A stretch of 64,000 bases of DNA from Minisyncoccota bacterium (lineage in GTDB: Bacteria > Patescibacteriota > Minisyncoccia > Phycocordibacterales > UBA1550): the NCBI GenBank assembly GCA_023229865.1, contig JALNYL010000001.1, positions 23,008-87,007 on the forward strand, written 5' to 3'. Positions 9,723 to 22,125 of the stretch are shown here, piece by piece. Numbering within the stretch: the stretch's first letter is position 1; each line of letters starts with the position of its first letter. Under the pieces are notes generated by a model, which saw nothing but the letters and a program-made list of their open reading frames with translations, searched no databases and was not told the DNA's origin. A program made the translations under genes and the position numbers.

Positions 9723-10431
9723 AACAATAAAACACTGGTTCGCAGAAGCGCCACATTTCGAAGGGACGATTGTTGATACTGAGCGTATTGGGTCTCGTAT
9801 TCAAAAAGTAACCATCGCACTCCCTGAGCCAGTCGAAACACCATTCCCTATTGGAAGCTACGTTCAACCGATGACATGGGGGTGTGTACCGCGCGCATAC
9901 TCAGTAGCGCTCGCCGATAAACAATCTTTCACCCTCCTCGTGAGCTTTTCGGGTGGCGGCTGTGGCTCACGTTTTTTCCGTGATGCACAAGATGGCGACA
10001 AGGTGGTTTGCTATGGACCTTATGATGACTTCCCTTATCGTTACCGCACAGGCCGTTCAAAAGTATTTTTTGCAACATCGACAGGAGTCGCGCCCTTTCG
10101 CCGCATGATAGATGAGGCAATAGGAGAAGGTGTCGACGTGGCGCTCTATCTCGGCTCACCAAAGGAGGGGGACGTCGCTTTTAAGGCAGAGCTTGAGGAG
10201 CTTTCGCGCAATAATCCTTCATTCACCTTTTGCCCAACACTTTCAAATCCCGACCCTGACTGGAAGGGCGCGCACGGGTACGTGACCGACCACATCACGC
10301 AAAACCCCGACCTTATGCGTAAGAGCGATGTTTACATTTGCGGGATCCCCCCGATGACCATGGGGGTACTCGCCGCCCTTGAGAAAGTCGGTGTCCCTGA
10401 AAAGCAGATCTTTGTGCAAAAGTTTGGATAA
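9709..10431 (+). CDS. FNR-family FAD/NAD(P)-binding oxidoreductase
   Basis: RAYSVA (RxYS FAD motif), GTGVAPF (NAD(P) motif), C-terminal ICGIPPM. Frame is open upstream to at least 9643. Confidence 0.75.
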   Translation: MSISKTIKHWFAEAPHFEGTIVDTERIGSRIQKVTIALPEPVETPFPIGSYVQPMTWGCVPRAYSVALADKQSFTLLVSFSGGGCGSRFFRDAQDGDKVVCYGPYDDFPYRYRTGRSKVFFATSTGVAPFRRMIDEAIGEGVDVALYLGSPKEGDVAFKAELEELSRNNPSFTFCPTLSNPDPDWKGAHGYVTDHITQNPDLMRKSDVYICGIPPMTMGVLAALEKVGVPEKQIFVQKFG

Positions 10432-18156: not shown

Positions 18157-18726
18157 CTAAAACACTCTACCGCTTTTCTTGAGCTCTTTGCGGAGTGAGA
18201 GGTAGTTAGGAATTGCTTGTGCAACAAGGTTCCAGAACTTATGTGAATGGTTGAACTCCTTGAGATGGCAGAGCTCGTGCACGATGATGTAATCAGCGAG
18301 CTCGGGGGGCAGGAGGGCTATCCTGTAGTTGAAATTAAGATTGCCTTTGCGTGAGCAGCTTCCCCACCGTGTCTTCTGATTTTTGATATTTATCTTGTTG
18401 TAGCTGAAGTTGTAAAACGTATTGAAATACTCCAAGCGCGCTCGTGCTTGCACGAGCGCGCGCTCCTTGTACTCTGCGTATTCCTTCGAGCTCCCCTTCT
18501 TCACAAATACTGCACCTGAAAAACTTTTGAAGTGCTCGAGCTTCTCAATGATCCACTGCGATTTCTGGAGGATATATTTCTCAATCATTCCCTCCCCGAT
18601 CCCACGTGGCGCCGTCACCACAAAAGCCCCATCGCAATATATTGCGAGTCGTAACCTCTTCGCCCGCGCACGCACCTTGAGCGTATAAGGGACTTTCTGC
18701 TTTTGAAGTTCAATGTGCTTTAGCAC
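18157..18726 (-). CDS. YgjP/DUF45-like M48-type metal-dependent hydrolase
   Basis: Zinc motif HELCHL near C-terminus. N-terminal region typical of DUF45. Confidence 0.7.
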   Translation of the reverse strand: MLKHIELQKQKVPYTLKVRARAKRLRLAIYCDGAFVVTAPRGIGEGMIEKYILQKSQWIIEKLEHFKSFSGAVFVKKGSSKEYAEYKERALVQARARLEYFNTFYNFSYNKINIKNQKTRWGSCSRKGNLNFNYRIALLPPELADYIIVHELCHLKEFNHSHKFWNLVAQAIPNYLSLRKELKKSGRVF

Positions 18727-18735
18727 GGAATTTAT

Positions 18736-18939
18736 TTATAAACCTGACCACTCCTTTTCACATTGCGCACAACGCTGGTTACCAGTATGTTCAAAAATCT
18801 CAGTAAATTTGTTTGGTTGGTATATTTTATCATCCTCATCCCAAAAAAATTCATCATCAATAATTGTCTCCACTAATTTACGCTCACTGCCACAAAATTG
18901 ACACGCATATTTAGGAAATATATTTATTTGATTATCCAT
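18736..18939 (-). CDS. Small zinc-ribbon protein (hypothetical)
   Basis: CQFCG...CAQCE. AT-rich codon usage like the neighbouring islet genes. Confidence 0.4.
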   Translation of the reverse strand: MDNQINIFPKYACQFCGSERKLVETIIDDEFFWDEDDKIYQPNKFTEIFEHTGNQRCAQCEKEWSGL

Positions 18940-18973
18940 ACCTGATCCTTGATCAAATACAAAAGAAAGTCAA

Positions 18974-19741
18974 CTACACAAGGCGGTACTTTCCTGCATC
19001 AATAAATTCAAGATAGTTCTTGTCTCTCAAAAACTGTAATTGCTGTCTAATTTTTGGCTTAATGTTTTTATTTTCAGGATGAATGACAGATAAATTTTTT
19101 TCAAAATTATACACGTCTTGCAATGTGAACTCCTTCTTATTCAATGAATCAATACAATTCATTATGTCCAAAATCCATCCTTTTGCATCGCTCTTTTTAA
19201 TCTGTTTCAAAAAGACAGTCTTTTGCCATTTTTCTAGTACTTCTTTCTTGCTAAGTTCTTTTCCGTTTTCAATATAAAAAATCTGCCCTGCTTTTGGTAT
19301 TTTTGAAAACAAAATATTTGAACCAACCCAGCCAGCTCGTCTTGCACTTTCTGCTAGTGGTTTTCTTTCTTCAATAATTTCTGATACAAAAAAGTGTTTT
19401 GGAACAACGAAAAAATCATTTACTTTCCAGTCTTCAACCAAATAGCCCATAAAAAAGAAATTTGGTTTTTGCGGTGAATTAATTCTCTTCACCATTTGAG
19501 AATATGCACCAGCAGAAACTTTGTTTCCCATTTTTCCCTTTTTAGATTTTAACTCAAAATCTTCTGCACATTTTTTACAATAAAAATCAGCAACAGGCTT
19601 ATTGTTTTCGTAGTCAGAAACACCATAGCCACAACTCGGGCAATATATTTCATTAAGCACCCATTTTTCAGTCAGAACTCGAGCCTTTTGCGAGTTGCTT
19701 ACGTAAGCATCAGCTATCTTTGTAACAAAATTTAAGTTCAT
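18974..19741 (-). CDS. DpnI-family methylation-dependent type IIM restriction endonuclease (cleaves Gm6ATC in characterised members)
   Basis: Strong recalled similarity to S. pneumoniae DpnI over full length (SNSQKARVLTE, YCPSCG, NKPVADFYCKKCAEDFELKSKKG, PNFFF, RRAGWVGSNI, C-terminal winged helix IRQQLQFLRDK). Start refined to ATG 19741 (255 aa). Low GC. Confidence 0.8.
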   Translation of the reverse strand: MNLNFVTKIADAYVSNSQKARVLTEKWVLNEIYCPSCGYGVSDYENNKPVADFYCKKCAEDFELKSKKGKMGNKVSAGAYSQMVKRINSPQKPNFFFMGYLVEDWKVNDFFVVPKHFFVSEIIEERKPLAESARRAGWVGSNILFSKIPKAGQIFYIENGKELSKKEVLEKWQKTVFLKQIKKSDAKGWILDIMNCIDSLNKKEFTLQDVYNFEKNLSVIHPENKNIKPKIRQQLQFLRDKNYLEFIDAGKYRLV

Positions 19742-19982
19742 AAATATCAGAAAGTATACCACGCACAGAAGATTTTGAACTACACCCAAGGCAGAAAATC
19801 CCACCTTAGAATGGGGTTTTCTAAAGTTGTGAGCCTAATCGAGATGCGACCCAAGGATACATTACCCTGTAAGGCTTATTTTAGCTCTTTCTGTCCCGTT
19901 AATCGACCCTTCTCGAGAGTTTGTAACAGTTAGCCAAACATGAATTCCGAGCTATGAAAGACATTTAAATAATGAAGATCTT

Positions 19983-21476
19983 CTATCTCTTTTGGAGTGG
20001 ATTTAATATCTCTATGCATCTTTCTAAAATTTCAGGATTATTCACTATAATTATCTTAAGTTCTTTTCGCACTCTTGTTATAGCTTGAAAAAGCATTTTA
20101 TGCGGCAAATAAGGACCATTTGTAGTGTGAGTTAGTTCACCTGTTTCTTTATATACAAATTTTTCTCCCACAATTACTACAACTTTATCAAATTCTTGTC
20201 CTATAACACCATGTGCATTCGCTGAAGAGTTAGTGTGTATATTGTATGTTTCATATATTGAGCTTCCATGCAACTGTTCTGTGTAATTTATATATACCCA
20301 CCGTTCATCTTCAAGATTCTTTACATAACCACCAACGCAATTCATATTTTCAAAATACTGTATCGTGACATTTTTATATGCCCTTTGAGATTTGTTTTCT
20401 TTTTTATTAACAAATCTTTTTATAAAAGAAGAAATTTCTTTATTCGTTCTTATATTTTCAGATAGCTCGAAATGATTTTTTATCCCCTCAAATAATTCTG
20501 CGGCAGATCTGTTACCATGCTTACCATCTATAAGACTTAGCGTTTGGGTTTTGTCGTAACTAAATAAGTAATTGAATTTTTCTTTATTATTTATAATTAC
20601 AGTCAATTGTATTGAACGAATTCTTTGGGCTTCATCAAATATTATTAAACTGTAGCTGTCTTTAACCCTTTGTTCTGTAAATTCGCTTATCGAAATTAAA
20701 TCAAAATTATGCACATCCCTTAACTTTACTTGTCCTAGATTTAATTTTCCGCAATGAACAATCAGTACTTTATTGTGATTAGATATTATTTCCTTTGCTA
20801 TATCATACACAAGTAATGTTTTTCCTGTTCCTGCTTTTCCAGAGATAGCACAAGGGCCAAATTCATTTTTCGCCATTATCTCCAGTATAGATTTCTTAAT
20901 CTTTACTTGATGATCGGTCAAAAAATATTCACCTTTTATAAACTTATCAGTACTATTGAAAGGCGACACAAGAAATTCAGATGGATCAAATAGTGAATCC
21001 AAATTCTCTTTTGTAGGGGAATCCGTCAACAAAACTTCTAGTAAGTCTTTTACTTCTAACTCACTTAGCTCTTTCTTTTCATTAAGAATATATAGTTTAT
21101 CTTCGTTTGATTGATAAGTGATGTTATAAATTTTATCTTTTCCAAGAGAATCAAGATAGTATTTATTTTGTGTTAACTGTTTCTTTATATTTTCTTCACT
21201 TGCGCCAGATTTTAATTCAATATTAATAACCGAATTTTTTGTGATTCTCAGTAAATCAAACTCTTTGGATATCTGCGGTATTTTATATCCAATATAATAC
21301 CCATCAAAGATATTTGGACTTTGATATTCTCCAAACAACTTTTCTATGAATTTCGATAGATCTTCTATTTCATTATCTTCAAGATTTACGTTTAGGTATT
21401 CTAAATACTTCTTAAATAATTCATCAGATAGATTATTTTTCGATTCTAATATTGATAATAAGTTTGTAAAGTTCAT
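19983..21476 (-). CDS. NERD / PD-(D/E)xK nuclease domain fused to P-loop ATPase (DUF2075/Schlafen-like helicase-type)
   Basis: N-terminal EFDLLRITKNSVINIELKSG (NERD-like D...E-x-K). Walker A SGKAGTGKT, Walker B LIIFDEAQR. Very AT-rich. Confidence 0.7.
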   Translation of the reverse strand: MNFTNLLSILESKNNLSDELFKKYLEYLNVNLEDNEIEDLSKFIEKLFGEYQSPNIFDGYYIGYKIPQISKEFDLLRITKNSVINIELKSGASEENIKKQLTQNKYYLDSLGKDKIYNITYQSNEDKLYILNEKKELSELEVKDLLEVLLTDSPTKENLDSLFDPSEFLVSPFNSTDKFIKGEYFLTDHQVKIKKSILEIMAKNEFGPCAISGKAGTGKTLLVYDIAKEIISNHNKVLIVHCGKLNLGQVKLRDVHNFDLISISEFTEQRVKDSYSLIIFDEAQRIRSIQLTVIINNKEKFNYLFSYDKTQTLSLIDGKHGNRSAAELFEGIKNHFELSENIRTNKEISSFIKRFVNKKENKSQRAYKNVTIQYFENMNCVGGYVKNLEDERWVYINYTEQLHGSSIYETYNIHTNSSANAHGVIGQEFDKVVVIVGEKFVYKETGELTHTTNGPYLPHKMLFQAITRVRKELKIIIVNNPEILERCIEILNPLQKR

Positions 21477-21564
21477 AAATCAATAATAACAAACACGCCT
21501 CAAAAGTAACTTTTTCTTAGTCTTAGATTCGAGCCTTCTCGAGTGCTCGAACCAGCTCTCTTTG

Positions 21565-21636
21565 TGACCTTACGGAGAATCGAACTCCGATTACAGGAAT
21601 GAGAATCCTGTGTCCTAGCCGTTAGACGATAAGGCC
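21565..21636 (-). tRNA. tRNA-Glu (anticodon CUC)
   Basis: Minus strand GGCCTTATCGTCTAACGGCTAGGACACAGGATTCTCATTCCTGTAATCGGAGTTCGATTCTCCGTAAGGTCA. Cloverleaf with anticodon loop TTCTCAT, T-loop TTCGATT. CCA not encoded. Confidence 0.8.
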
Positions 21637-21720
21637 TTTATATTTCTTCAATTTCAAAGCGCCCTTTGGCGCTTGTTTAATACTGTAGCACATTTTCTGG
21701 TATTTTGCCAATAGCCCCAC

Positions 21721-22125
21721 CTACTCAGCCTTAATTTGGAAATTGTACATCCCCATTGAGCAGACTCCTTGAATCTTTTCGCCGGGTTTTGGTGTCCCCA
21801 AATCAATAATCTCTTCCTGTGTTGGCGCAAGGACCTTCTGAAAGCCGATAGAGCGCACCACAAGAGATGCTGAGCAGTCATAGGTGCCACTCGTCTTCAC
21901 GATGAGCTTGGTCGGGATATCAGGCTTTATAGAAGATAGTTTTGGGAAGTACCCGCCCTTTGCCGCGAGCGTCACATATTGCACACCGTCTCTCATTTCC
22001 GTGTTTTGCGTTTGGGCGACCTCCGTATTCCCCAGCGAAGCCTCGGGAGTTTTTGTCACAAAATATAATGCTCCGCCGACAATCGCGATACTGAGCACCA
22101 CTGATATGAAAGTATTCTTTTGCAT
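21721..22125 (-). CDS. Secreted cupredoxin-like (Cupredoxin_1-type) metal-binding domain protein
   Basis: Signal/TM MQKNTFISVVLSIAIVGGALYF. C-terminal ...GVCSMGMYNFQIKAE and YDCSAS. Start refined to ATG 22125. Confidence 0.4.
   Translation of the reverse strand: MQKNTFISVVLSIAIVGGALYFVTKTPEASLGNTEVAQTQNTEMRDGVQYVTLAAKGGYFPKLSSIKPDIPTKLIVKTSGTYDCSASLVVRSIGFQKVLAPTQEEIIDLGTPKPGEKIQGVCSMGMYNFQIKAE

Follow-up and report, generated by a model that had tools for sequence, protein, structure and literature searches.

The 64-kb stretch of Patescibacteria (candidate phyla radiation, CPR) DNA analysed here, referred to as a whole as the window, contains a short AT-rich islet next to a tRNA-Glu gene. 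Three genes are encoded in this islet: a nuclease-helicase gene of the Nhi/AbiO family (referred to as Nhi), a restriction enzyme gene of the DpnI family, and a gene for a 67-aa zinc-ribbon protein (Zn67). The islet combines two described, self-sufficient anti-phage genes with an orphan zinc-ribbon gene and is not a new two-part system. In all probability it is a composite, made up of separately acquired AT-rich cassettes downstream of tRNA-Glu(CTC), the products of which act independently and in parallel. A first reading of the DNA (the original prediction) had joined the DpnI homolog and the adjacent nuclease-ATPase fusion into a candidate new two-component system. This candidate resolves into two catalogued single-gene defences that are neighbours by chance. 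Both main genes are new members of known families in a CPR host, and the reach of the Nhi/AbiO family into Patescibacteria adds to the defence picture of these CRISPR-poor, small-genome bacteria.

The original prediction had itself named co-occurrence of the two genes in other genomes as a check, and co-occurrence was analysed from both sides. For DpnI, the best 80 loci among 185,579 species-representative genomes were inspected with flanks of up to 10 kb on each side where the contig allowed. Almost all of them belong to Patescibacteria/CPR (Nomurabacteria, Moranbacteria, Paceibacteria, Saccharibacteria, Gracilibacteria and others) and share 55-93% identity with the window protein; DpnI-type methyl-dependent restriction seems to be unusually common and well conserved in CPR. 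No Nhi match was found beside DpnI in 79 of these 80 loci. For Nhi, 22 other loci were compared, namely the six closest ones with usable context (L002, L004, L005, L102, L103 and L104, 67-90% identity; L001-L112 are the labels of the homologous loci compared) and 16 distant metagenome loci. DpnI is located beside Nhi in none of the 22. The nearest Nhi homologs are found alone amid housekeeping genes (L002, L005, L102, L104) or beside varying neighbours (L004, L103), a gene context that suggests that Nhi works without a dedicated partner. L103 (6001-9574) encodes an Nhi homolog of 67% identity and, directly behind it, a restriction enzyme of HaeIII type and a C5 DNA methyltransferase, so that the same tRNA-Glu slot carries a different restriction partner there.

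The sole DpnI locus with a trace of Nhi is L020. Between positions 10001 and 11379, the DpnI-Zn67 pair precedes a strong terminator-like hairpin, behind which an Nhi gene (82% identical) is represented by its first 40 codons only. Gene order thus differs from the window, with the 40-aa N-terminal remnant encoded 3' of the DpnI-Zn67 pair and not 5' of it. About 120 nt before the contig end, the sequence switches abruptly to unrelated GC-rich DNA, and an Rfam search of this tail found nothing. Either gene truncation or an assembly junction could account for the stump.

Profile matches place the 497-aa protein, over its full length, in the described Nhi/AbiO single-gene family. The PADLOC models Nhi (E = 5.5e-160) and AbiO (E = 5.1e-160) both align with protein residues 1-492, on model positions 1-470 and 1-468, respectively. 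The nuclease-ATPase fusion had been taken for an undescribed protein, which is not tenable at PADLOC E-values of 5e-160. Its proposed architecture holds in part: a PD-(D/E)xK nuclease is joined to a DUF2075/Schlafen-type superfamily 1 (SF1) helicase, but the label NERD for the nuclease falls below the Pfam cut-off (PF08378, E = 0.04, 14.9 bits versus a cut-off of 22.1), and none of 33 family members matches NERD at E <= 0.01. Judged by its motif, the N-terminal domain is PD-(D/E)xK-like, and membership in NERD is not demonstrable. The DLLRITKNSVINIELKSG motif on which the label had been based is present and includes the invariant D74...E87-x-K89. In an alignment of 33 relatives (42-90% identity), the nuclease residues D74, E87 and K89 are invariant, as are Walker A (GKAGTGKT, G213-T220), Walker B (DEAQR, D281-E282) and the later helicase motifs. 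Pfam PF09848 (DUF2075/SLFN-g3_helicase) is matched by the 497-aa protein (8.9e-12) and by 33/33 relatives. An AlphaFold2 model of the protein (predicted local distance difference test, pLDDT, 88.7) has an N-terminal alpha-beta-beta-beta-alpha-beta core, with D74, E87 and K89 placed on strands 2 and 3. Foldseek matches are SLFN11, RecD2, Dda, Upf1 and Dna2 (E 1e-11 to 1e-6). A sequence search of the PDB with the Nhi profile returned weak P-loop matches only, to RFC and DnaC.

Nhi of Staphylococcus epidermidis RP62a (SERP2475) confers immunity as a single-protein nuclease-helicase, for which both motifs are required (bioRxiv 10.1101/776245). Its activity needs no recognition sequence and is probably directed at phage replication intermediates; 72% of Nhi homologs are located near other defence genes, and the published survey lists homologs in Firmicutes, Bacteroidetes and Proteobacteria (bioRxiv 10.1101/776245). 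The window protein matches the models of both SERP2475-type Nhi and lactococcal AbiO (PADLOC PDLC02372, PDLC02350) from end to end. It shares with SERP2475 the N-terminal PD-(D/E)xK motif, the DUF2075 helicase of subgroup SF1B and intact Walker A and B motifs. The structural neighbours Dda, Upf1 and Dna2 reported for Nhi were also found here, and the gene likewise stands alone near other defences. In contrast, SERP2475 comprises 606 aa compared with 497 aa here, and its C-terminal Glyas_Bleomycin-R domain, which is poorly conserved (bioRxiv 10.1101/776245), is missing from the window protein. Unlike the published homologs, the present clade is found in Patescibacteria and is tied to tRNA-Glu. 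Plasmid-borne homologs of the window protein (Bacillus, Enterococcus, Lactococcus, Providencia) do not exceed 42% identity. We know of no cultured host for this CPR lineage. With family membership and motifs intact, anti-phage activity would be expected by analogy to the staphylococcal protein.

The assignment of the second gene to the DpnI family (type IIM) is as firm as sequence analysis allows. The Pfam profiles DpnI (PF06044; 1.2e-72, 243.9 bits, cut-off 26.7) and DpnI_C (PF17726; 1.1e-32, 112.4 bits, cut-off 23) are both matched, as is the PADLOC model mREase_II (8.2e-102), and residues 1-253 align with positions 4-255 of PDB 4ESJ chain A (E = 5.3e-80). R.DpnI of Streptococcus pneumoniae (PDB 4ESJ/4KYW) resembles the window enzyme in length (254 versus 255 aa) and in its two-domain layout, here a PD-(D/E)XK catalytic domain with a Cys4 zinc site and a C-terminal winged-helix domain; the host is a Firmicute there and a CPR bacterium here. 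In a global alignment the two proteins are 48% identical, and 17/17 functional residues checked are conserved. Among the catalytic and zinc-site residues known for R.DpnI (PMC3424567), E25, D53, E64 and K66 correspond to E25, D52, E63 and K65 of the window protein, and the zinc site is formed by C34, C37, C55 and C58 (two CxxC motifs). The residues that read GATC and both N6-methyl groups, and those of the winged helix (PMC4117772), are identical as well: the base contacts Q18, N48 and R126, the methyl-pocket residues L129, R135, W138 and G140, and K229 and R231. This conservation bears out the full-length DpnI homolog of the original prediction and strongly suggests specificity for Gm6ATC. 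NCBI holds an identical protein, annotated 'restriction endonuclease [Candidatus Pacebacteria bacterium]', and a protein identical to Zn67 is likewise recorded there from Candidatus Pacebacteria.

The GATC sites of the host itself must stay unmethylated, because DpnI would cut Gm6ATC. From DpnI biology, a host without Dam methylation of GATC can soundly be inferred, as had been proposed. No open reading frame (ORF) of at least 150 aa with the [DNS]PP[YFW] motif of N6/N4 methyltransferases was found in the window. GATC occurs at 176 sites outside the islet, with an observed/expected ratio of 0.66 that is mid-range among the under-represented 4-bp palindromes. Both observations are compatible with a Dam-negative host. 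Other under-represented 4-bp palindromes outside the islet are CTAG (0.43), CCGG (0.48) and TATA (0.65); palindrome under-representation may record past restriction pressure.

The islet is set off from its surroundings by base composition. In intervals of 500 nt, GC content is 0.26-0.37 across approximately 18750-21500, compared with 0.45-0.52 at positions below about 18.5 kb, and is regained by 21500-22000 (0.46-0.50). It is the sole such trough of the window, every other kilobase having a GC content of at least 0.40. The individual genes show the same picture, with GC contents of 0.328 (Zn67), 0.328 (DpnI) and 0.290 (Nhi) versus 0.48-0.52 in six neighbouring genes measured. GC content at third codon positions (GC3) is 0.23-0.29 in the islet genes versus 0.48-0.62 in these neighbours. 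The sharp drop in base composition between about 18.73 and 21.5 kb, the adjoining tRNA-Glu gene (placed at 21564-21636 by ARAGORN and Rfam) and the three ORFs, all on the minus strand, had been described in the original prediction and were recovered, which supports an AT-rich, horizontally acquired defence islet at tRNA-Glu. One boundary was revised. The middle ORF had been listed at 18974-19804 from an upstream GTG, and its start was moved to the ATG at 19741, since the Pfam and PDB matches begin there and close homologs are all 254-255 aa long. The features of the islet are, in the direction of transcription:

21564..21636, minus strand, tRNA-Glu, anticodon CTC (ARAGORN; Rfam RF00005, 58.8 bits, E = 1.9e-11)
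21529..21543, minus strand, direct-repeat copy A, CTCGAGAAGGCTCGA, in the tRNA-Glu/Nhi spacer (repeat search)
19983..21476, minus strand, Nhi/AbiO-family gene, 497 aa (profile and motif matches)
19903..19917, minus strand, direct-repeat copy B, CTCGAGAAGGGTCGA, opening the element of about 90 nt
19825..19917, minus strand, conserved non-coding element of about 90 nt, 3' of the Nhi stop codon
19800..19815, minus strand, terminator-like hairpin, CCCATTCTAAGGTGGG followed by ATTTTCT, between the Nhi cassette and the DpnI gene (terminator scan)
18974..19741, minus strand, DpnI-family gene, 255 aa (Pfam, PADLOC and PDB matches)
18943..18973, minus strand, Zn67 promoter-like element (cross-locus conservation)
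18736..18939, minus strand, Zn67 gene, 67-aa zinc ribbon with CxxC at residues 13-16 and 57-60 (ORF)
18157..18726, minus strand, YgjP-like metallopeptidase gene, outside the islet (Pfam YgjP-like, 8.9e-43)

The tRNA-Glu(CTC) gene serves as the upstream anchor of the islet; its 3' end lies 87 nt from the start of the Nhi gene in the same orientation. Since no terminator-like site was found between them in the window, co-transcription of Nhi and the tRNA is possible. The DpnI gene starts beyond the terminator-like hairpin, and a TGn-extended -10-like sequence, TGGTATACT, was read by eye 14 nt 5' of its ATG. The distal edge of the islet is razor-sharp. It is marked by the ygjP-like gene, which is host-like in composition (GC 0.481, GC3 0.621) and whose GTG start codon is located 9 nt past the Zn67 stop codon (18726-18738); given this short gap, ygjP is possibly transcribed by read-through from the islet. 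Neither the ORF list nor Pfam revealed a recombinase or integrase gene or a remnant of one within the islet, the coding capacity of which is filled by its three ORFs. An Rfam search of 18600-21800 at E <= 1 returned the tRNA alone, other matches being far under their gathering scores. The islet neighbours a murF/ftsI cell-division cluster. In most loci, the homologs of both DpnI and Nhi exceed their flanks in AT content, which fits horizontally circulating cassettes.

The linkage to tRNA-Glu recurs in relatives of Nhi. In five CPR-type loci, Nhi starts 62-87 nt past a co-oriented tRNA-Glu gene (CTC or TTC), with 62-77 nt in the four other than the window. The junctions are:

window, 21477-21636
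L002, 9861-10001
L005, 167-306
L103, 5849-6001
L087, 4045-4182

Upstream of Nhi in L004 and L104, tRNA-like remnants only were found. A core sequence, CGAGAAGG, is located just past the tRNA and again about 40-65 nt past the Nhi stop codon, where it opens the element of about 90 nt; a CGAGAAG core likewise occupies both places in L002, L005 and L102. The element lies 3' of Nhi and is followed by the terminator-like hairpin. It is conserved in the window, L002 and L005, as seen in alignments, and also in L102 and L104, and no Rfam family matches it. L002 and L005 have a hairpin followed by a T-run in the corresponding place, where compensatory changes are seen. In the window, the alignment of the tRNA-Nhi spacer with the 300 nt downstream of Nhi scores 25, compared with a shuffle mean of 16. 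Significant repeats flank Nhi in the window (15 nt, p about 0.006) and in L103 (45 nt, p < 0.002); L102 carries the whole element on both sides of the gene (p < 0.002). The repeats and elements of the relatives have the following coordinates:

L002, 11535-11665
L005, 1855-1990
L102, 376-545 and 2054-2250
L103, 5923-6000 and 7515-7580

Because repeats flank Nhi and the tRNA-Glu linkage recurs, insertion or exchange at a specific short site is suggested. The window repeats enclose Nhi and are located just past the tRNA rather than inside it, in an islet that lacks a recombinase. The element and the repeats are candidates for an attachment (att)-like site, a 3' untranslated region or a small RNA. 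Nhi behaves as a discrete cassette, and Nhi and DpnI look like separate transcription units, as a terminator-like hairpin is located between them and the repeats bracket Nhi alone.

Two further candidates were rejected. The element of about 90 nt was considered as a decayed 3' half of tRNA-Glu (attR); in four loci, shuffled sequences aligned as well as tRNA and element did (p = 0.87, 0.84, 0.06 and 0.61), and a 12-nt tRNA match in L104 is a weak hint only. A general adjacency of DpnI loci to tRNA genes was dismissed as well: a tRNA gene lies within about 1.6 kb in approximately 9 of 60 loci scanned, which is not above a rough expectation for small genomes with a tRNA gene every 15-20 kb. The tRNA-Glu linkage is specific to the Nhi cassette.

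The surroundings of tRNA-Glu(CTC) near the cell-division cluster act like a variable slot for defence genes, with cargo that differs among relatives. In L087, genes for a penicillin-binding protein and MurF, tRNA-Glu(CTC) and Nhi (40% identity) are arranged in the same order as in the window. In L058, the penicillin-binding protein and MurF genes are accompanied by a CofD-like gene (read by eye) and DpnI adjoining tRNA-Glu(CTC), without Nhi. This resembles defence islands and tRNA hotspots in general and the pneumococcal DpnI/DpnII/DpnIII locus in particular, where unrelated defence genes occupy one variable site between conserved flanks (PMC4471560). Similarly, the relatives compared here swap cargo, with Nhi in L087, DpnI plus a methylase remnant in L058 and, in another setting, Nhi plus the HaeIII-type pair after tRNA-Glu in L103. 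In contrast to the known hotspots, the islet is devoid of mobility genes, and its anchor consists of tRNA-Glu, the core CGAGAAGG and the element of about 90 nt.

Zn67 matches no family in Pfam, PADLOC or NCBIfam. Among 5.8 billion proteins the family accounts for 78 clusters, and 29 proteins, nearly all of them similarly small, were retrieved when 1.84 billion representatives were searched with its profile. In the alignment, C13, C57 and C60 are invariant, as are several acidic and aromatic residues, and C16 is nearly so. The AlphaFold2 model (pLDDT 86.6) is a single long beta-hairpin, for which no significant fold match was found in the PDB (best: MqsA N-terminal zinc domain, E = 1.8). Zn67 is encoded 30-37 nt past the DpnI stop codon in 13 of the 80 DpnI loci and also in L111. 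When look-ups were started from Zn67, three of four lacked DpnI upstream (L105, L108, L112). In L105 (3302-6204), a MazG-like gene precedes Zn67, together with the gene for a large helicase of the DUF2075 (Schlafen) type to which an S24 peptidase is fused. In L108 (2664-6207), it follows a DUF3644 protein, MazG-like and DUF2075 helicase genes also precede it, and reverse transcriptase, RadC, DUF3644 and SocA_Panacea genes are found in its neighbourhood. These surroundings look like other defence-island modules of CPR genomes. In L112, the gene upstream of Zn67 is divergent, and restriction-type genes follow Zn67.

Upstream of Zn67 in the window, TTGACT is followed by a 17-nt spacer, AAGGAT, 5 nt and the ATG. 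The pattern TTGAYN-17 nt-AANRAT with 5-7 nt to the start codon was found in 18 of 18 distinct Zn67 loci, whatever the upstream gene (window, L010, L014, L015, L019-L022, L031, L033, L044, L059, L060, L079, L105, L108, L111 and L112). The window element also contains an inverted repeat, TGATC-AAG-GATCA (18943-18955), with two GATC sites 3 nt apart. The corresponding repeat YGATC-AAN-GATCR overlaps the -10-like hexamer in 16 of the 18 loci; the two loci without the second GATC have the hexamer AATAAT or AACAAT. A consensus promoter scan called neither the Zn67 nor the DpnI promoter-like site; the Zn67 element was missed because AAGGAT fits only three of the six TATAAT positions. The element may represent a promoter of its own, giving rise to a leaderless or nearly leaderless mRNA, with the GATC palindrome as a putative operator or methylation-sensitive site over the -10 position. 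Judged by its recurring element, Zn67 forms a unit of its own that accompanies DpnI frequently, though not in every locus. The pneumococcal DpnI locus is comparable in that it is a small exchangeable cassette in which the endonuclease gene is followed by, and paired with, a small gene of unknown function, dpnD (PMC4471560). The companion differs, being a 67-aa zinc ribbon here and dpnD in pneumococcus.

Several explanations for the joint occurrence of the three genes were weighed against the composite islet. That DpnI as a sensor nuclease and the nuclease-ATPase as an ATP-driven effector form a new modification-dependent two-component system, as originally proposed, might be argued from the window itself, where both genes adjoin on one strand and share the same AT-richness, and from the DpnI-Zn67 pair beside an Nhi N-terminal fragment in L020. 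Each family, however, has already been shown or is accepted to act alone, and the partner is absent from 79/80 DpnI loci and 22/22 other Nhi loci. In L020, gene order is different and Nhi is reduced to a 40-aa stump. Within the islet, 240 nt and a terminator-like hairpin lie between the two genes, and the direct repeats bracket only Nhi. After the co-occurrence analysis this model is close to refuted and would be extremely surprising if true. Some observations do weigh against the composite islet. L020 joins a DpnI-Zn67 pair to an Nhi fragment, which speaks for some tendency of the cassettes to land together, as is usual for defence islands. Outside the close clade, Nhi was sampled thinly, with 16 metagenome loci of which many lie on short contigs. 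The window repeat around Nhi measures just 15 nt, and those of L002 and L005 (8-10 nt) are not significant on their own (p = 0.61 and 0.06, respectively).

A more restricted proposal is that DpnI and Zn67 are a functional pair, with Zn67 as a regulator or accessory protein whose gene is placed like dpnD beside dpnC, and that Nhi is an unrelated neighbour. The short distance to DpnI (30-37 nt) in 13/80 loci and L111 is in line with this, as are at least nine further Zn67 clusters whose longest contig equals that of a DpnI cluster in size, the upstream palindrome made up of two copies of the DpnI recognition sequence GATC, and the pairing of pneumococcal DpnI with a gene of unknown function (PMC4471560). 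We nevertheless regard it as unlikely: Zn67 is missing in 61 of 74 DpnI loci with at least 300 nt of downstream sequence, three of four look-ups started from Zn67 led to other contexts (L105, L108, L112) with the GATC-pair element retained in all three, and DpnI of S. pneumoniae is active alone in vitro (PMC3424567). It is distinctly improbable that the entire islet is a single decayed integrative element, such as a prophage or an integrative mobilisable element at tRNA-Glu that has lost its integrase. Its position on the 3' side of a tRNA gene with a short direct repeat would suit such an origin. In L014, moreover, a serine recombinase (515 aa) is encoded beside tRNA-Ser/tRNA-Glu and upstream of a DinD-like gene, DpnI, Zn67 and a methyltransferase, and a transposase-like ORF (read by eye) is found just after Zn67 in L015. 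Yet the repeat pair encloses Nhi and not the whole islet, Nhi occurs alone with the same boundaries in L002, L005, L102 and L104, DpnI is found with or without Zn67 in many unrelated contexts, and the islet contains no recombinase gene or remnant.

For the composite islet with independently acting products, the following mode of action is proposed. By analogy to staphylococcal Nhi, the Nhi-type enzyme would degrade phage replication intermediates with no partner and no recognition sequence, and would thus act on replicating phage DNA whatever its sequence or methylation. The DpnI-type enzyme, as a monomeric type IIM endonuclease, is predicted to cut only fully methylated Gm6ATC and would restrict phages or plasmids with Dam-type methylation. 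Zn67 would be a self-contained unit with its own promoter-like element that often travels just downstream of DpnI. The cassettes may have been exchanged by a recombinase acting in trans or by homologous recombination via conserved flanks, like the pneumococcal Dpn cassettes.

The repeats and the element of about 90 nt around Nhi and the GATC palindrome of Zn67 are of interest for regulation and mobile cassettes in CPR bacteria. A far-reaching and rather improbable reading is that the Zn67 element is a Dam-methylation-responsive switch and, independently of this, the Nhi cassette an integrase-free exchange site in naturally competent CPR bacteria, the latter because of the fixed position after tRNA-Glu, the repeated CGAGAAGG core and the element of about 90 nt. 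With such a switch, Zn67 expression would shift once a Dam-encoding phage or plasmid methylates the GATC sites of the host, and Zn67 would act as a small regulator or alarm carried along with DpnI and further defence genes of CPR bacteria.

Further genes were observed around the DpnI-Zn67 pair in other loci. In several of them, a 285-aa N4/N6 methyltransferase-like gene (PPY motif, read by eye) overlaps the 3' end of Zn67; in others, only its first codons (AAATCTGATTGGCG) or a C-terminal fragment are present. The loci and stretches concerned are:

L014, 145-5182
L010
L033
L058, 11250-11519
L020 and L022, just after Zn67

A 280-aa DinD-like gene (read by eye) ends 3 nt before the DpnI start codon in L014 and L015, and the 515-aa serine recombinase of L014 directly abuts tRNA-Ser/tRNA-Glu.

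The islet sequence was also recovered from an independent assembly. L001, a Logan contig of 2972 nt (SRR18595301), is identical to positions 18619-21590 of the window. One end of the contig falls within tRNA-Glu and the other 108 nt into the ygjP-like gene, and such breaks of the assembly graph near the edges of the islet may be due to strain variation at the site.

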